NCBI GenBank assembly: GCA_964584645.1
Contig: CAZPBH010000001.1
Location: forward strand, 17,377 to 43,305
Origin: an uncultured Rhodospirillales bacterium
Lineage (GTDB): Bacteria > Pseudomonadota > Alphaproteobacteria > CAZPBH01
Direction: 5' to 3'
DNA length: 25,929 bases
A model generated the notes under the pieces. That model did not search any database. It was not told the DNA's origin and saw only the letters and a program-made list of their open reading frames with translations. Shown piece after piece: positions 1 through 25,045 of the stretch (position 1 is its first letter; each line of letters begins with the position of its first letter). The translations under genes were made by a program, and so were the position numbers.

Positions 1-655
1 CCGGCGTCGGGTTGATCTCGGCCACCTGCACGCCGGTCTCGACATGCACCCCGTGACGGCTGTGGGTATCGGCGAAGAATTGCGAGACCATTGGCGCCAC
101 CACCCGGGGAAGCAGCCGGTCCTGCGCCTCGATCACCGTGACCTTCAGGCCAAGCTTGACGAGGATCGCCGCCGTCTCCAGCCCGATGAAGCCACCCCCG
201 ATGATCACCGCGCGCCGCGCACCCGGCAGGCAGGCCCGGATCGCATCCACATCGGCCAGTGTGCGCAGATAGAACACGCGCTTGTGGTCCGCCCCGGGCA
301 CGGGGAGCTTGCGCACTCGGGTGCCGGTGGTCAGCGCCAGCTTGTCATAGGCGAGGTCCTGGCCGTCATCGAGGCGAAGGCGCTGACGGGCGCGGTCGAT
401 CTGCACCGCGCGGCGGCCGAAGATGGTCGTCACCCCGTTCCGGTCATAGAAGTCCATCGGCCGATAGAGCAGCCAGTCGGGCGCGAACTTGCCCGCCAGA
501 TATTGCTTGGACAAGGGCGGGCGCTGATAGGGTGCGACCGGCTCATCCCCCACAAGGGTGATCGGGCCCTGATGGCCTTCCAGCCGGGCCTGGTCGATGG
601 CCTGGGCCGCCGCCTGTCCGGCGCCGACGAGAACGAGATGATCGGTGCTGGCCAT
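1..655 (-). CDS. FAD-dependent NAD(P)H:ferredoxin reductase-type flavoprotein (putidaredoxin-reductase-like), 5' part; runs off the left edge
   Basis: Absent from the ORF track; translated by hand from the ATG at 655: MASTDHLVLVGAGQAAAQAIDQARLEGHQGPITLVGDEPVAPYQRPPLSKQYL...YDKLALTTG...VIIGGGFIGLETAA. It has an FAD-binding GAG motif, the PYxRPPLSK signature and an NAD-binding GGGFIGLE motif. It starts 5 nt after the stop of the Fe-S gene. Confidence 0.9.
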   Translation of the reverse strand, partial: MASTDHLVLVGAGQAAAQAIDQARLEGHQGPITLVGDEPVAPYQRPPLSKQYLAGKFAPDWLLYRPMDFYDRNGVTTIFGRRAVQIDRARQRLRLDDGQDLAYDKLALTTGTRVRKLPVPGADHKRVFYLRTLADVDAIRACLPGARRAVIIGGGFIGLETAAILVKLGLKVTVIEAQDRLLPRVVAPMVSQFFADTHSRHGVHVETGVQVAEINPTP

Positions 656-660
656 CGGCT

Positions 661-1266
661 TCAGGGCCTCGTGTAGATGATTTGCGGGTTGGCACCGGCG
701 GCTTCATGCAGATGCTGGGTGTCGCGCGCGGCGGCATAGCGGCTGACATCGCTGTCGGGGTCGTTCAGATCGCCGAAATGGAGCGCCCGGGTCGGGCACA
801 CCGACACACAGACCGGGTCGAGGCTGTCGACGAGGCGATGCTCGCAGGCCGAGCACTTGTCGGCCGTGCCGATCTGCGGATCAAAGGAAAGCGCGTCATA
901 GGGGCATTCCTCGCCGCAACGCTGGCAGCCGATGCACTTGTCCTTGTCGAGCAGGACGAGCCCGTCGCCTTCATCGCGGAACAGGGCGCGGGTGGGGCAG
1001 GCCTGCACGCAGGGGGCGTCGGTGCAGTGATGGCACATCGTCGGCAGCCAGAACATGTCGAGATCGGGATAGACCCCGGTCGGCCGTTCGATGTCGGGAT
1101 TCTCCTGGCTGTCGAGCACCTGGAGCCGGAATTGTCCCTCCGGGGTGTCATGCTCCATCTTGCAGCCGACGATGCAGGTGTCACAGCCTATGCAGCGCAG
1201 CAGGTCGATGACGAAACCGAGCTTCTTCGGGCGGGTCTCTTCCGGCGTTACGGGGGCGAGGCTCAT
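661..1266 (-). CDS. 4Fe-4S dicluster electron-transfer subunit (DmsB/NrfC-like beta subunit)
   Basis: Four Cys groups: CIGCDTCIVGC, CHHCTDAPCVQACP, CIGCQRCGEECP and CSAC...CVSVCP. The start overlaps the molybdoenzyme stop by 4 nt. Confidence 0.93.
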   Translation of the reverse strand: MSLAPVTPEETRPKKLGFVIDLLRCIGCDTCIVGCKMEHDTPEGQFRLQVLDSQENPDIERPTGVYPDLDMFWLPTMCHHCTDAPCVQACPTRALFRDEGDGLVLLDKDKCIGCQRCGEECPYDALSFDPQIGTADKCSACEHRLVDSLDPVCVSVCPTRALHFGDLNDPDSDVSRYAAARDTQHLHEAAGANPQIIYTRP

Positions 1267-3602
1267 GCCGCGTCCTCCTGTTCGTTTTCTTTCATGACTT
1301 CGACCGCGACATCCCAGACGGGGTAATTCGTCTCGATCGTGCGCTCCTGGACCTCGTTGCGGACGATGTGCCCGAGATCGGCGAAATGACCGCCCTTGAA
1401 ATGGGCGCGCCAGAAGCCCTGCGGCACCGTGACCATGCCGGCCTTGATGCCCTCGTTGATCGAGCAGCGCAGGCGCATCCGCCCCCTGTCATTGAAGACG
1501 GAGACCAGATCGCCCTCGTTTAGCCCGCGATCCCGGGCATCGGCCGGGCTGATCTCCAGCATCGGGTCGGGCAACTGCTCACGCACCCAGGGCAGCATGG
1601 TGTGCTGGGAATGGGTGGAGTGTACGTGCTTGGGGCTGATCAGCATCAGCGGATAGCGCTTGCCATGGGCCGTGCGCGGGCTTTCCAGCGGTTCCTTGAA
1701 GGTCAGCACGGCCTCGTCCTGATCGCGGAACTGCTCGGTATAGAGCTCGATCCGGCCCGAAGGTGTCGGGAACTTCCTGTCGGCAAAGGGCACATGCGGA
1801 CGCGGGATCTCGACCCTGGCCGCCCCTTCGCGCTTCAGCTCGTCCCAGTCGACGGCGCGCACGGCTGGATCGTCGTGATGCTCAAGGACGAACTTGCAGA
1901 CCTCTTCATTCGTCATCGACCAATGGGCGCCCTCGCCCATCCGTTCGGCGACCCCGGCGAAGATCTCGTAATCGTTCCTGCTTTCGCCCACCGGCGGGAT
2001 CGCGCGCTGGCGCAGCTGCAGCCACCAGTTCTCGCCCCCGGCCACGAGGTCCATCTCCTCCTCGTAATAGGAGACACAGGGCAGCACGATATCGGCGAAA
2101 CGCGCGGCATCGGTCATCAGCTGCTCGGTGACCACGAACAGGTCGAGCTGCGGCAGCGCCTCCTTCGTGAAGCGCTCGAAATTCGGGCTTTGGGTGCCGA
2201 ACCCGTAGGCCGAGAGCCAGAGCGCCTTGACCGGATAGGGCTTCTGGCTGCTGATGATGTCCAGCATATGCACACCCGGCAGCACCGAGCCGGTCTTGCC
2301 GCCGGGCTCCGTCCAGATCTTCGGTGGGTTGAAGGTGACGCGCATATGCGCGCCGTCCAGCAGATTGACCCCGGCATAGGGCTTGCCGATCGCCCCCACC
2401 ATCGCGCCCAGCGTCACATAGGAACGGTGAACGAGCTGACCGGCATGGTAGCGCTGCGGTCCGGCCCCGGCCCACAGCCAGGGTGTCCTGGCATTCGCAT
2501 AATCACGGGCGACCCGGCGGATCTGCTCCTCGGGCACCTCACAGATCGCGGCGGCCTCGGCCGGGCGGTAGGCCGCCCAGTGCTCGACCATGACCTCGAA
2601 GGCCGTAGGCGCCTGAAAGGACCGGCCATCGGCAAGCGCGACGGCATGACGACCACGCAGGCCCGGCGCCTCGGCAGCATCGGAGGGGCGCAGGCCGTCT
2701 TCCGCCACGACCCAGCGCTGATCGGTCTCATCGCCGGTGATCTGACCCCAGCGGAGCAGGGTGCCGGTTTCGGGATCGACCAGAAAGGGGGCGTTGGTAT
2801 GGGCGCGGACATAGCCCTCGTCCATCAGCCCTTCCTCGATGATCGTGTTGATCATGCCCAGCACCAGCGCGGCATCGGTGCCCGGGCGCGGGCTGACCCA
2901 TTCATGCGCCTTGGCTGCGGTGCGGGAAAAGCGCGGATCGACGACCGTCAGCCTTGCGCCCTTCTCCATCGCATCGAACAGGAAGCGCATCTCCGAATGG
3001 TCGGTGTCGGCCGGGTTGCGTCCGAAGATGAGGACGTAATCGGCATGGTGCAGATCGGCCAGATCGTTGCAGACGCTGGGCACGCCCAGCAGCGGCAGAT
3101 AGCCCATCATGCAGTTGAGATCGCCCATCATCCCGCCATGGGTCAGCACCGTGCCGCCGAGATTGTTGGCGATGCGTTCTGGCGTCGTGGTGGCCTTGAA
3201 ACCGTAATTGCCGCTCATGGTCATCCAGGCATTCGAGGCCGGACCGTAGCGGTCGATATTCGCCTGCAGCTTGCCGGCAATCGTGGCAAAGGCCTCGTCC
3301 CAGCTGATCACCTCCCATTCACCGGAACCGCGCTCGCCCCTGCGTTTCAGGGGATGGGTCAGCCGGTCGGGATGGTTGACCCGCTGCATCGCCATGGCGA
3401 TGCCCTTGATGCAGATCCGCTCGAAGCCGGGCTCTGGAAAGGCGGCCGGCTCGATCTTCAGGATGCGATCATCCTTCACAAAGGTATTGATGCCGCATGT
3501 GCCGCTGCAATTGGGGGAGCATACGGTACGGACGATACGATCCGGGACGATCTCGCCAGCAACCTTGGGGGTTTCCGTGGAATGCTCTATGCGACCGCTC
3601 AT
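1263..3602 (-). CDS. Molybdopterin oxidoreductase catalytic subunit, DMSO reductase superfamily, no Tat signal, substrate unknown
   Basis: N-terminal CSPNCSGTC...C Fe-S motif; RLTHPLKRRGERGSGEWEVISWDEA; VVDPRFSRTAAKA..W...RPGTD; ADIVLP; C-terminal molybdopterin-dinucleotide domain (HSTHSQH...ISPADARDRGLNEGD). Confidence 0.93.
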   Translation of the reverse strand: MSGRIEHSTETPKVAGEIVPDRIVRTVCSPNCSGTCGINTFVKDDRILKIEPAAFPEPGFERICIKGIAMAMQRVNHPDRLTHPLKRRGERGSGEWEVISWDEAFATIAGKLQANIDRYGPASNAWMTMSGNYGFKATTTPERIANNLGGTVLTHGGMMGDLNCMMGYLPLLGVPSVCNDLADLHHADYVLIFGRNPADTDHSEMRFLFDAMEKGARLTVVDPRFSRTAAKAHEWVSPRPGTDAALVLGMINTIIEEGLMDEGYVRAHTNAPFLVDPETGTLLRWGQITGDETDQRWVVAEDGLRPSDAAEAPGLRGRHAVALADGRSFQAPTAFEVMVEHWAAYRPAEAAAICEVPEEQIRRVARDYANARTPWLWAGAGPQRYHAGQLVHRSYVTLGAMVGAIGKPYAGVNLLDGAHMRVTFNPPKIWTEPGGKTGSVLPGVHMLDIISSQKPYPVKALWLSAYGFGTQSPNFERFTKEALPQLDLFVVTEQLMTDAARFADIVLPCVSYYEEEMDLVAGGENWWLQLRQRAIPPVGESRNDYEIFAGVAERMGEGAHWSMTNEEVCKFVLEHHDDPAVRAVDWDELKREGAARVEIPRPHVPFADRKFPTPSGRIELYTEQFRDQDEAVLTFKEPLESPRTAHGKRYPLMLISPKHVHSTHSQHTMLPWVREQLPDPMLEISPADARDRGLNEGDLVSVFNDRGRMRLRCSINEGIKAGMVTVPQGFWRAHFKGGHFADLGHIVRNEVQERTIETNYPVWDVAVEVMKENEQEDAA

Positions 3603-3685: not shown

Positions 3686-4246
3686 ATGACGCAACGAAAC
3701 GAAAAGCCGCACCCCATCTGTGGCATGATTCTTGCGGGCGGACGCGCACGTCGCATGGGACGCCCCAAGGCAGGTCTCGTCGTGGGAGGACGGCGGTTGA
3801 TCGACCACGCGATCGCCTTGCTGGAAGCCTGTGGCGCCGCCGACATCCTGATCCTCGGCGAGGTCGAGGGCATGGCGAGCCTGCCGGATCCGACACCCTT
3901 TCCGGGCCCCGCGGCGGCGATCCTTGCCGCCCTTCGATCCCGACCGGGGCCATTTTCATGGCTGGTCGTGCCGGTCGACATGCCGGGGCTGGAGCCCGCG
4001 GATGTGCACCCGCTTCTGGCACGCGGCACCACCTCCCATTACGAGCGCGCCGGCTTTCCCCTGGTCATTCATCCGACGAGCCTCGAAGCCCTGCCCGATG
4101 ATCCGATGAAGGACGCCTCGATGCGCGAGCTTCGCGAGCGGCTTGGCTCTCGCCCGCTTGCGATCCCGGAGGCACGGCAACCATGGTTCAGGGATTGCGA
4201 TACGCCCGAGGACCTGAAGGCCCTCGAGCATCTGTTGGCGTCCTGA
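3686..4246 (+). CDS. mobA: Molybdenum cofactor guanylyltransferase (MobA-like NTP transferase)
   Basis: ILAGGRARRMGRPK nucleotide-binding loop, VVPVDMP and C-terminal DCDTPEDL. Divergent from the molybdoenzyme gene. Start placed at ATG 3686 because the longer track ORF overlaps the molybdoenzyme gene. Confidence 0.8.
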   Translation: MTQRNEKPHPICGMILAGGRARRMGRPKAGLVVGGRRLIDHAIALLEACGAADILILGEVEGMASLPDPTPFPGPAAAILAALRSRPGPFSWLVVPVDMPGLEPADVHPLLARGTTSHYERAGFPLVIHPTSLEALPDDPMKDASMRELRERLGSRPLAIPEARQPWFRDCDTPEDLKALEHLLAS

Positions 4247-4995: not shown

Positions 4996-5033
4996 GGCTT
5001 TTCCCTTCTCTTCAATGGTTCGATGAAAACGAA

Positions 5034-5065
5034 ACGCCGGCCGAGCAAACCAGCTCGGCCGGCGT
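5034..5065 (-). terminator. Intrinsic terminator-like hairpin after the TonB-dependent receptor
   Basis: Perfect 13-bp inverted repeat ACGCCGGCCGAGC-N6-GCTCGGCCGGCGT, followed on the minus strand by TTCGTTTT, about 55 nt after the receptor stop. Confidence 0.7.
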
Positions 5066-5118
5066 CATCATGTTCAGGTGCCGCGCCCTTGCGGCAGGAA
5101 TGCAGGGTGAGCCGAGGC

Positions 5119-7482
<2,364 letters not shown>

Positions 7483-7648
7483 CAATGGGCCTCCCTGGGG
7501 CGCTTTCGTTGGAGTGCTTGGCTCAGCGGACATAAAAAAACGCCATGGGTTCGCGTCAGCGCGTGTGCACCGAACGTCCATGGCGTCTTTGCCCTTTGAT
7601 CAGCGCCGAGACCCTTGCCCACGGACTCCGCTGCTGTCAATGAAATGT

Positions 7649-7703: not shown

Positions 7704-8645
7704 TCAGATCTTCTTCACTTCCAGCTTGGAAGCAAAGAGACCCGGGGTGACGACCTTTTCCAGCGTCGCGACGAATTCGGGCGTCCACTGGTCCTTGTAG
7801 TCACGCACATAGTCGCGGAAGGTGCGCGGCGGCTTGCCCAGCAATTCGGGCAGGATATCGGTCAGGGGCTCGTTCTTGCCGAAGCGGGTGAGCGTGTAGA
7901 CCACCGACATGAAGAACAGCACGTCACCCGGCACGCCGCGGCGGATGTAGCGATAAAGGAAGCGCGGCAGCGAAGGGTTCACATAGCGAATATCGCGGCC
8001 GAGTTCCTCGGAGAAGATCTGCGCCACTTCCCACATGTCCAGACGCTCCGGTCCGGAGACGACATAGGTCTTCTTGTAGTGCGGCTCGGGCTTGCGGATG
8101 ATGTTCATGATCGCATCCGACAAATCGCGCGAATCAAGGAAAGATGTCTTGCCCTTGCCGGTCGGCACAAAGACCTCGCCCTTCAGCGCGATGTCGATGA
8201 TGTGCGAGCTGATGGCCCGGGTGAAGTTCTGCGCGAAATAGCTGGCTTCGAGGATCGTGTAGTTCACGCCCGAATCGCGGATCGCCTTTTCCACCCAGTA
8301 ATGCGGCACGAACTTCAGCTTGTCGGCACCCGGCACCGAAACATAGATGATGTGCTCGACCCCTGCATCGCGCGCGGCTTCCACAAACGGCGCCATGCGT
8401 TCCTTGGCCGTGACCGGATGCGGCAGCGGGAACAGCAGGAAGAGCGTCTTGCAGCCATCGAGCGTCGGCCCCCAGGTCTCACGCTTTCCGAAATCGAACC
8501 TGACAGTCGGCACATGGGCGCCGTACTGATCCTGGATCTTCTGCGGATTGCGAGCCGCGATCTTGTAGGGAATATCGCTCTGGGCGGCGAGAGCCGTGGT
8601 CAGCTCCGAGCTGACATTGCCACTGGGACCGGTCACCACGAACAT
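7704..8645 (-). CDS. NmrA-like NAD(P)H-binding oxidoreductase (atypical SDR)
   Basis: N-terminal VVTGPSGNVS Rossmann motif; AARDAGVEHIIYVS; H..VEKAIRDSGVNYTIL; SFLDSRD; C-terminal LLGKPPRTFRDYV. Confidence 0.88.
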   Translation of the reverse strand: MFVVTGPSGNVSSELTTALAAQSDIPYKIAARNPQKIQDQYGAHVPTVRFDFGKRETWGPTLDGCKTLFLLFPLPHPVTAKERMAPFVEAARDAGVEHIIYVSVPGADKLKFVPHYWVEKAIRDSGVNYTILEASYFAQNFTRAISSHIIDIALKGEVFVPTGKGKTSFLDSRDLSDAIMNIIRKPEPHYKKTYVVSGPERLDMWEVAQIFSEELGRDIRYVNPSLPRFLYRYIRRGVPGDVLFFMSVVYTLTRFGKNEPLTDILPELLGKPPRTFRDYVRDYKDQWTPEFVATLEKVVTPGLFASKLEVKKI

Positions 8646-24010: not shown

Positions 24011-25045
24011 ATGGAAGCCGCGGCGCAATCGGGCGACCAGCGGCAGGAATTTTACCGGAAGATAGCGGGGTCACATCTGACCCCGCTATGGGAATCCCTG
24101 CATGCGCTGGTGCCGAAAACCCCGAACACGCAGTGCGCGCCGGGGTTCTGGAAATTTGACGAGGTGCGTCCCTTCATCCATGAAGCGGGCCGGCTCATCA
24201 CCGCCGAAGAGGCTGAACGGCGTGTCCTGATCCTCGAAAACCCGGCCTATCCCGGAGAATCGCGGATTACCAACACGCTTTACGGGGGGTTGCAGTACAT
24301 CCTGCCGGGCGAGGTGGCACCCGCCCACCGGCACAGCCAGTCCGCACTGCGCTTCGTGATGGAGGGTCAGGGCGCCTTCACGGCCGTGGATGGCGAAAAG
24401 ACCACCATGCATCCGGGCGATTTCATCCTGACACCCTCATGGACCTGGCATGATCATGGCTGCGAGGTGGATGAGCCGACCATCTGGTATGACGGTCTCG
24501 ACATTCCGCTCGTCGCCTATTTCGGCGCCGGCTTTGCCGAAGCGGCCAACGTCAAGAGCCATGAGGTCAGCCGGCCCGAAGGTGACGCTCCGGCACGCTA
24601 TGGCGCCAATCTGCTGCCCGTCGATTACGAGCAGAGGGGCAAGACCTCGCCGATCTTCAACTATCCCTATGCGCGCTCGCGCGAGGCGCTGGAGAAGCTG
24701 AAGACCGGGCCGGTCGACCCGCATCGCGGCATCTGGATGAAATACATCAATCCGGCGACCGGGGACTATGCCCTGCCGACGATCTCGGCCTTCCTCACGC
24801 TGCTGCCCGATGGCCTTGCCACCCAGCGCTATCGCTCCACCGATGCCACGGTCGTGATCGTGACCGAAGGCACGGGCGAGAGCCGGATCGGTGATATCGT
24901 CTACAGATGGGGGCCGCGCGACATCTTTGTCGTGCCGGGCTGGCAATGGGTGACCCACCATCCCGATGGCGAGGCCGTGCTGTTCAGCTATTCGGATCGC
25001 ACCATCCAGGAAAAGATTGGCCTCTGGCGGGAAGAACGCGGATGA
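24011..25045 (+). CDS. gtdA: Gentisate 1,2-dioxygenase (bicupin)
   Basis: LTPLWESL, AERRVLILENP, LYGGLQYILPGEVAPAHRH, GDFILTPSWTWHDH, DGLDIPL, LFSYSDRTIQEKIGLWRE. Confidence 0.93.
   Translation: MEAAAQSGDQRQEFYRKIAGSHLTPLWESLHALVPKTPNTQCAPGFWKFDEVRPFIHEAGRLITAEEAERRVLILENPAYPGESRITNTLYGGLQYILPGEVAPAHRHSQSALRFVMEGQGAFTAVDGEKTTMHPGDFILTPSWTWHDHGCEVDEPTIWYDGLDIPLVAYFGAGFAEAANVKSHEVSRPEGDAPARYGANLLPVDYEQRGKTSPIFNYPYARSREALEKLKTGPVDPHRGIWMKYINPATGDYALPTISAFLTLLPDGLATQRYRSTDATVVIVTEGTGESRIGDIVYRWGPRDIFVVPGWQWVTHHPDGEAVLFSYSDRTIQEKIGLWREERG

Follow-up and report, generated by a model that had tools for sequence, protein, structure and literature searches.

A conserved operon of a cytoplasmic DMSO reductase-family subunit, a four-cluster ferredoxin and a ferredoxin reductase-type flavoprotein: a candidate NADH-fed molybdoenzyme

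What supplies electrons to an enzyme of the dimethyl sulfoxide (DMSO) reductase family when its gene stands in one operon with that of a ferredoxin reductase (FdR)-type flavoprotein? This question is raised by a 25,929-nucleotide stretch of DNA from an uncultured Rhodospirillales bacterium (the window), which comprises bases 17377-43305 of the 43-kb contig C1 in an assembly of 2.7 Mb, 515 contigs and ~90% completeness (GCA_964584645.1). To our knowledge, descriptions of DMSO reductase-family enzymes almost always fall into two kinds: respiratory modules linked to quinones or cytochromes, and lone cytoplasmic subunits with an unclear electron donor. Here, open reading frame (ORF) calling placed three minus-strand ORFs at positions 1-3602, encoding a subunit for a molybdenum (Mo) or tungsten (W) bis-pyranopterin guanine dinucleotide (bisPGD) cofactor, an iron-sulfur (FeS) subunit and a flavin adenine dinucleotide (FAD) protein. 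The Mo and FeS genes overlap by 4 nt (1263-1266) and a 5-nt spacer (656-660) separates the FeS and flavoprotein genes; this is translational coupling, which we count in favour of one system. Judging from the sequences, we consider it somewhat probable that the three proteins constitute a single cytoplasmic three-component Mo (or W) bis-pyranopterin oxidoreductase, fed by NADH, that reduces an imported and most likely organic, often aromatic or phenolic, substrate.

The catalytic subunit, P0001, gave matches above the gathering scores to three Pfam families, PF00384 (Molybdopterin, 1.5e-50), PF01568 (Molydop_binding, 1.3e-20) and PF04879 (Molybdop_Fe4S4, 3.2e-9), and by this domain content is a member of the DMSO reductase (Mo/W-bisPGD, MopB) superfamily. 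Its N-terminus (MSGRIEHSTE...) contains no RR motif and cannot be extended upstream; by this measure P0001 is a cytoplasmic protein with no twin-arginine translocation (Tat) leader. The FS0 cluster motif is all-Cys (C28-x3-C32-x3-C36...C64). Asp161 aligns with the Mo-ligand Asp170 of PcrA, with Asp222 of NarG and with Ser176 of DmsA (S206 of the precursor), and is by alignment alone the predicted Mo ligand, as in NarG and PcrA; it is invariant in the near clade of relatives described below (103/103 sequences) and in a Tat-exported clade (41/41), and is found in 63 of the 65 sequences of a third, sediment clade. An AlphaFold2 model of P0001 is confident, with a mean predicted local distance difference test (pLDDT) value of 89 and a predicted template modelling (pTM) score of 0.90.

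To place P0001 relative to characterised enzymes we used NCBIfam cut-offs, E-values against the PDB, and pairwise alignment to the DmsA and NarG proteins of E. coli. Every curated NCBIfam cut-off was missed, as it was by members of the neighbouring clades. The top match, DmsA/YnfE (TIGR02166), scored 317.6 bits against a cut-off of 777.7, followed by the type II alpha model (TIGR03479; 314 against 984.75, matched by the N-terminal half alone), Fdh-alpha (TIGR01591; 259 against 666), PhsA (230 against 694) and BisC (TIGR00509; 192 against 1017.55). By these scores the large subunit falls outside the modelled families such as BisC, which an earlier reading of the letters of this DNA (the original prediction) had named as a possible home that would undo its proposal. 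The nearest solved structures are likewise distant, with PcrA at 1.5e-56 (N-terminal third) and acetylene hydratase at 2.3e-48. Since a type II-like Asp ligand position, a DmsA-like all-Cys FS0 motif and a short, DmsB-like four-cluster beta subunit occur together, the enzyme is a mixture of these traits. P0001 is the sole DMSO reductase-family gene detectable in the assembly. Homologs of MoaA and MoeA are encoded elsewhere, away from the operon, a MobA-like gene adjoins it divergently, and no TorD/NarJ homolog was found in the assembly; synthesis of bis-MGD (the bis-molybdopterin guanine dinucleotide cofactor) in this genome may be dedicated to P0001.

The second protein, P0002, matches Fer4_11 (4.5e-27) and carries 16 Cys in four cluster motifs, all 16 of which are conserved in 62 relatives. 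It is 38% identical to E. coli DmsB and falls below the curated equivalog cut-offs (DmsB, 146.9 against 214.1); its four Cys groups and ~200-aa Fer4_11 fold are those expected of the four-cluster ferredoxin subunits of DmsB/PsrB/NrfC type. The third gene runs into the left edge of the window, which is a 10-N scaffold gap (contig C1 17367-17376) within the gene. Its C-terminal part, with the end of Pyr_redox_2 and with Reductase_C, lies on the same strand at contig C1 16749-17366, and over both halves the Pfam matches reach 1e-44 (Pyr_redox_2) and 1.1e-27 (Reductase_C). An intact ortholog, from locus L004, aligns on both sides of the gap with 62% and 54% identity; because just ~8 residues are lacking from this alignment, the gene is in all likelihood complete, and its apparent shift of frame a product of the placeholder gap. 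Against the PDB, the intact ortholog matches ArR (3lxd, 5e-94), putidaredoxin reductase (1q1r, 9e-91) and PuR (3fg2), all within 1e-90 to 1e-94, as well as BphA4 and TodA, the whole set spanning 1e-62 to 1e-94. Cut-offs of the HcaD and AndAa equivalog models were missed. The flavoprotein has a GxGxxG...E fingerprint of NADH type, and its second Rossmann fold ends in an acidic residue (VTVIEAQDR), which from general knowledge of the fold we take to favour NADH over NADPH. By these matches it is classed as a ferredoxin-NAD+ reductase of the putidaredoxin reductase/BphA4 type; a second FdR paralog is encoded on contig C161. The three genes are therefore much as the original prediction had read them, namely a Mo-bisPGD subunit without a twin-Arg leader, a 4x[4Fe-4S] subunit overlapping it by 4 nt, and a putidaredoxin reductase-like protein beginning 5 nt later.

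To place this arrangement among its relatives, homologs were sought in 5.8 billion proteins, and loci were drawn from the encoding contigs, from a metagenome scan with the clade alignment and from PLSDB. The closest relatives form a near clade of 83 protein clusters, 46-71% identical, from Sphingomonadales, Steroidobacteraceae and uncultured Gammaproteobacteria, in which no Tat leader occurs (0/83). The next group, of 36 clusters at 40-45% identity, comes from Eggerthellaceae/Coriobacteriia and Desulfitobacterium, and has a Tat leader in all but the N-terminally truncated fragment P0091. A third clade (L057-L120), 30-37% identical to P0001, consists of Tat-less Mo-FeS pairs followed by varied genes. 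Mo, FeS and FdR genes stand in the same order at 13 distinct near-clade loci (Table 1), two of which lie within one metagenome-assembled genome (MAG), and the trio is in this sense conserved across the clade. One of the 13 is carried by pLA3, a 757-kb plasmid of the cultured Novosphingobium pentaromativorans US6-1, in whose annotation the genes bear generic names only; no published description of the Mo-FeS-FdR trio or of the US6-1 genes was found in the literature searched. Tandem Mo paralogs, ~55% identical to each other's orthologs, precede a single FeS and a single FdR gene at two loci, L004 (10001-16548) and L038/L051 (10001-16427 in L038). Several genomes hold two or three Mo paralogs, which suggests substrate diversification.

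In the Tat clade the arrangement is Mo-FeS-TorD-like chaperone, with an anchor-like gene of eight transmembrane segments (8-TM) at one locus (L053), and FdR is absent from all 34 Tat- and sediment-clade loci that have at least 1.3 kb of sequence beyond the FeS gene. Four further near-clade loci end too early for FdR presence to be called. Close homologs thus usually keep the reductase, a point that the original prediction had marked as decisive for its proposal: they do so at the 13 loci, and one locus is without it. The FdR-linked clade comes out as monophyletic in a tree of 65 sequences (SH-aLRT, the Shimodaira-Hasegawa-like approximate likelihood ratio test, 99), with the Tat/TorD clade as its sister (SH-aLRT 100). 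Distance matrices correlate over 12 loci, both for Mo and FdR (r=0.40, p=0.008) and for FeS and FdR (r=0.51, p=0.0004). The P0001 family is rare: no close homolog was present in the 400 class and 400 phylum genomes sampled, this genome being the sole representative of its order in the species set searched. A single-protein contig scan returned, among the matches listed, only distant gut Eggerthellaceae-type loci (22-34% identical); the Eggerthellaceae/Gordonibacter loci, of unverified function, are 22-28% identical to P0001 and form the outgroup in the tree. Of the sampled words of the region, 94% are present in one microbial mat metagenome run.

Some further features of these relatives may be recorded. 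The third clade is large and common in sediment metagenomes, keeps the same Asp ligand position and has an FS0 motif of CPAHCGIDACG type; at L065, within it, an 8-TM anchor-like gene follows the FeS gene. At L121 (14227-18326) the trio is directly followed by a second Mo subunit (888 aa, without an Fe4S4 domain match), a 477-aa protein in which a Fer4_11 ferredoxin is fused to a NarJ/TorD-like chaperone domain, and then thiolase and 3-hydroxyacyl-CoA dehydrogenase/hydratase genes. At L037 (8967-12283) the Mo gene is preceded by a gene for a Rieske-domain protein of 334 aa and by others for an MFS transporter, a CoA ligase, a pair of enoyl-CoA hydratases and an acyl-CoA dehydrogenase; MoaA-MobA-MoeA genes lie nearby.

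Reductases of the class found here are known from oxygenase systems, and the flavoprotein could in principle serve a separate oxygenase (Rieske, P450 or di-iron), being merely co-located with a two-subunit Mo-FeS enzyme that has some other redox partner. A VanA-like Rieske oxygenase gene does lie near the trio in L044, and a gene for a Rieske protein precedes the Mo gene of L037. However, the position and tight spacing of the flavoprotein gene are kept at 13 loci whose neighbours are otherwise different, no [2Fe-2S] ferredoxin or oxygenase gene adjoins it in G000 (the genome analysed here), L004, L038, L039, L121 or L124, and the di-iron oxygenase of the window has its own BenC-type reductase, with the FdR paralog on contig C161 encoded separately. 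Past the left edge, on the same strand as the flavoprotein, follow a histidine kinase gene (GAF-HisKA_2) with an ORF that runs across the stop of the reductase, a gene for a REC-ANTAR regulator, a hairpin with a U-run, and an acyl-CoA dehydrogenase gene. An NrfD/DmsC anchor, or an oxygenase with a small [2Fe-2S] ferredoxin, might have accounted for the reductase in another way, as the original prediction pointed out; none of these is encoded past the left edge on contig C1, nor does an anchor, [2Fe-2S] ferredoxin, P450 or Rieske gene adjoin the operon in G000. A separate oxygenase as the partner of the flavoprotein therefore strikes us as very unlikely.

For the NADH-fed reductase that we prefer, the following mechanism is proposed. 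The FAD protein would take a hydride from NADH and release single electrons, which would travel through the four [4Fe-4S] clusters of the small subunit and then FS0 to the Asp-ligated Mo (or W) of the large subunit, where the substrate would undergo reduction through abstraction of an oxygen atom or through dehydroxylation. Entry of the substrate would be by way of the TonB-dependent receptor and MFS-type transporters encoded nearby. Putidaredoxin reductase-type flavoproteins work physiologically as NADH-oxidising ferredoxin reductases, the path from NADH (-320 mV) through DmsB-type clusters to the Mo centre is downhill for reductions, and hydroxylation of an unactivated C-H bond (about +30 mV for ethylbenzene) cannot reduce NAD+; for these three reasons the reductive direction is favoured. 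The Tat-exported sister enzymes come from Eggerthellaceae and Desulfitobacterium, both rich in respiratory reductases, and we count this, too, in favour of the proposed reductase.

The same complex might instead be run oxidatively, as a water-dependent hydroxylase or dehydrogenase that passes electrons from a substrate of low potential (one resembling an aldehyde or formate, or an activated heterocycle) through FeS and FAD to NAD+. The homologous electron-transfer module of AorABC, to whose AorA the FeS subunit is related (5.5e-13) and to whose AorC the intact flavoprotein ortholog is related (3.7e-32), reduces NAD+; the Asp-ligated relatives include C-H hydroxylases such as EbdA, against whose model P0001 scored 166 bits (cut-off 2000); and some loci adjoin acetone carboxylase-like and beta-oxidation genes, as in the ethylbenzene pathway. 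Set against this are the potential of unactivated C-H hydroxylation given above, the normally NADH-oxidising character of the flavoprotein family and the fact that aerobic hosts own oxygenases for such steps, and we think oxidative operation unlikely. The original prediction had allowed for a soluble NAD(P)H-coupled Mo hydroxylase, dehydroxylase or oxide reductase with an organic substrate. Its soluble, NAD(P)H-coupled enzyme and organic substrate gain support from the gene contexts and the conservation of the trio, but an NAD+-coupled C-H hydroxylation is thermodynamically unlikely.

Genes that recur beside the trio encode TonB-dependent receptors (8 loci), MFS transporters unlike NarK, acyl-CoA dehydrogenases, CoA ligases and NmrA/EasG-like reductases. 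Aromatic catabolic genes are present in L039 (an HsaD/BphD-like, meta-cleavage-product hydrolase, WrbA and an intradiol dioxygenase) and in L044 (aromatic-ring hydroxylases, DmpG and a VanA-like demethylase). The gene contexts are thus catabolic and fit an organic, often aromatic, substrate. They also bear on another explanation, that of a cytoplasmic NADH-dependent reductase of an oxyanion (nitrate, chlorate, selenate or tellurite) in assimilation or detoxification. Such an enzyme would accord with the Asp ligand, as found in NarG, PcrA and SerA-type enzymes, with the precedent of NADH-linked Nas, and with the regulator, ANTAR proteins often lying near nas genes and controlling them in other bacteria. 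P0001 nevertheless scored only 175.9 bits against the NasC model (NF047855; cut-off 1100) and 94 bits against that of NarG (cut-off 1084), nitrite reductase and NarK-type transporter genes are absent nearby, none of the MFS proteins next to the trio fits a nitrate/nitrite transporter model, and the neighbours are instead TonB receptors, acyl-CoA dehydrogenase, NmrA-like and aromatic catabolic genes; the two or three paralogs in several genomes likewise speak for diversified substrates. We regard an oxyanion as a distinctly improbable substrate. A link to nitrate assimilation in particular, raised by the ANTAR regulator, MFS transporter and NADH flavoprotein together, was rejected since the MFS protein is not NarK-like and the Nas scores are low.

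The features of the locus are collected in Table 1. To the right of the operon lie the divergent MobA-like gene, a gene for a 247-aa membrane protein, a TonB-dependent receptor gene and two NmrA-like genes. The membrane protein invites the thought that the complex is membrane-associated, docked to this protein and in electron exchange with quinones, the flavoprotein having an accessory role. A 41% identical homolog is encoded directly upstream of the Mo gene in L043, and another small multi-pass protein is encoded near the trio on pLA3. However, the 247-aa protein shows no similarity to NarI or DmsC and is assigned to no family in Pfam or NCBIfam, it shares just two conserved His with L043, no homolog was found at the other 11 trio loci, and the divergent mobA stands between its gene and the operon in G000. 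As a candidate for a hidden anchor it was rejected, being unlike NarI/DmsC and conserved at just one other locus; its membership of the system is uncertain, and a quinone-linked complex of this kind appears to us extremely improbable. A protein atlas offered generic names and, for the 247-aa protein, a DUF4386-like label that we note as a lead only.

Table 1. Features of the operon and its surroundings, with the loci that carry the trio (window coordinates unless a locus is named)
Feature	Coordinates or loci	Strand	Basis
Catalytic Mo/W-bisPGD subunit P0001, 779 aa	1263..3602	-	Pfam, N-terminus, D161 alignments, AlphaFold2
DmsB/PsrB-type electron-transfer subunit P0002, 201 aa, four [4Fe-4S] motifs	661..1266	-	Fer4_11
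N-terminal 218 aa of ferredoxin-NAD+ reductase-type FAD protein	1..655, past window edge	-	Pyr_redox_2/Pyr_redox
MobA-like molybdenum cofactor guanylyltransferase	3686..4246	+	NTP_transf_3; weak MobA model matches
Multi-pass membrane protein, 247 aa	4252..4995	-	without Pfam or NCBIfam family
TonB-dependent outer-membrane receptor	5119..7581	-	Plug and TonB_dep_Rec
NmrA/EasG-like NAD(P)H-binding reductase	7704..8645	-	NmrA match; EasG subfamily match
GAF-HisKA_2 kinase / REC-ANTAR regulator region	L003 14967-16789 and L003 14820-14966	-	
Mo-FeS-FdR trio loci	G000, L004, L122, L005/L006/L124, L038/L051, L039/L047, L042-L046, L050, L121		

Homologs of the TonB-dependent receptor adjoin the trio or the Mo gene in L004, L037, L038, L043, L048, L121 and L124, and the tabulated NmrA/EasG-like gene is 68% identical in L043 and 55% in L038/L051. 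The kinase and ANTAR regulator are conserved near the operon in L004 and L038/L051, and the window's nearest relatives (L004, L038/L051, L043) have in common with it the kinase, the regulator, the acyl-CoA dehydrogenase (~70% identity), the NmrA-like gene and the receptor. Between the regulator and acyl-CoA dehydrogenase genes a GC-rich hairpin followed by a U-run occurs in both G000 and L038, perhaps an ordinary terminator, perhaps a leader under ANTAR control. A strong hairpin at 5033-5066 (minus strand), of 14 pairs and then a T-rich tail, resembles an intrinsic terminator and comes immediately after the gene for the TonB-dependent receptor. No Rfam match was found in the window or the left flank. 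Far to the right, a gentisate 1,2-dioxygenase is encoded at 24011-25045 (plus strand; 537 bits against a curated cut-off of 442), with genes for a PaaA-like protein and a BenC-type reductase upstream of it, ~20 kb from the Mo operon. We rejected a connection with gentisate breakdown, the dioxygenase being 20 kb away and the cupin of L039 not being a gentisate dioxygenase.

Several observations weigh against the NADH-fed reductase as we describe it. One near-clade Mo gene, that of L037 (Aurantiacibacter sediminis), has neither an FeS nor an FdR partner and has the Rieske protein upstream. Adjacency and co-inheritance fall short of proving a complex, and the distance-matrix (Mantel) correlations may stem partly from shared host phylogeny. 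Neighbours differ widely among loci, so that no single substrate can be deduced. Because the AorABC module runs towards NAD+, possession of such a module leaves the direction unfixed; by analogy, it could run to NAD+ here if given a low-potential substrate. Lastly, since a multi-pass membrane protein adjoins the operon in G000 and its homolog adjoins the Mo gene in L043, the purely soluble nature of the enzyme is something that we infer.

More speculatively, these operons might represent an undescribed class of soluble NADH-driven Mo-bisPGD reductases, with which aerobic Proteobacteria would carry out O2-independent deoxygenation or dehydroxylation of TonB-imported aromatics or phenolics in the cytoplasm. 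Such a class could have originated from a Tat-exported respiratory-type enzyme through loss of both export signal and chaperone and through recruitment of a ferredoxin reductase of oxygenase type. We put this wider idea forward as a possibility rather than an expectation. If true, a fixed link to NADH by way of such a reductase would give aerobes a new means of driving Mo-bisPGD chemistry, would point to unrecognised reductive steps in the aerobic breakdown of aromatic and other organic compounds, and would offer biocatalysis an attractive, self-contained NADH-driven catalyst of three proteins. As a trio is carried on pLA3 of the cultured N. pentaromativorans US6-1, the idea is directly testable.

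Comparison with known systems shows partial likeness to several. The E. coli DMSO and selenate reductases DmsABC/YnfEFGH share the Mo-bisMGD subunit with a Cx3Cx3C...C FS0 motif and the ~200-aa four-[4Fe-4S] subunit, DmsA being 26% identical to P0001. DmsA, however, is Tat-exported, has a Ser ligand and is docked to the quinol-oxidising anchor DmsC, whereas P0001 has no Tat leader and an Asp at the ligand position, and an NADH flavoprotein is found in place of DmsC. The type II enzymes (NarGHI, PcrAB, EbdABC, SerABC) have the same Asp at the metal-ligand position, and PcrA is the best-matching solved structure. They differ in that their FS0 motif is His-Cys3, their beta subunit is 330-510 aa long with a single [3Fe-4S] cluster, and they have a haem b gamma subunit as well as a NarJ-type chaperone. 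In the present system FS0 starts with Cys28 and the beta subunit has 201 aa and 16 Cys; neither a gamma subunit nor a chaperone was found.

Among cytoplasmic enzymes, NasC with its NasB/NirB-type FAD subunit is likewise a Mo-bisMGD reductase that draws on NADH by means of a flavoprotein from the pyridine nucleotide-disulfide oxidoreductase superfamily, but has a Cys ligand and no DmsB-type subunit, and the present context lacks a nitrite reductase and a nitrate transporter. BisC, the biotin/methionine sulfoxide reductase, is a cytoplasmic member of the same superfamily that uses NAD(P)H-derived electrons; it is a single subunit without an FS0 cluster or FeS partner, both of which are present here. 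The catechol dehydroxylases of gut actinobacteria (Dadh, and Dodh of Gordonibacter), likened here by description only, belong to the DMSO reductase family and remove aromatic hydroxyls reductively. A Gordonibacter-type dehydroxylase has been reported to be Tat-less, paired with a small 4Fe-4S protein and encoded beside MFS transporters (PMC7028382), but an NADH flavoprotein partner is not reported for these enzymes.

The closest described pterin enzyme coupled to NAD(H) by a module of this kind is AorABC, the tungsten aldehyde oxidoreductase of Aromatoleum aromaticum (PDB 8c0z). The catalytic subunit of that enzyme is of a different superfamily, the AOR family with a W-bis-metal-binding pyranopterin (W-bis-MPT) cofactor, and oxidises aldehydes, unlike the reductase proposed here. 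In both systems, however, a four-cluster ferredoxin and an FdR-like FAD subunit link, or would link, the pterin enzyme to NAD(H), and in AorABC this electron module reduces NAD+ (PMC6365974, PMC10413684).

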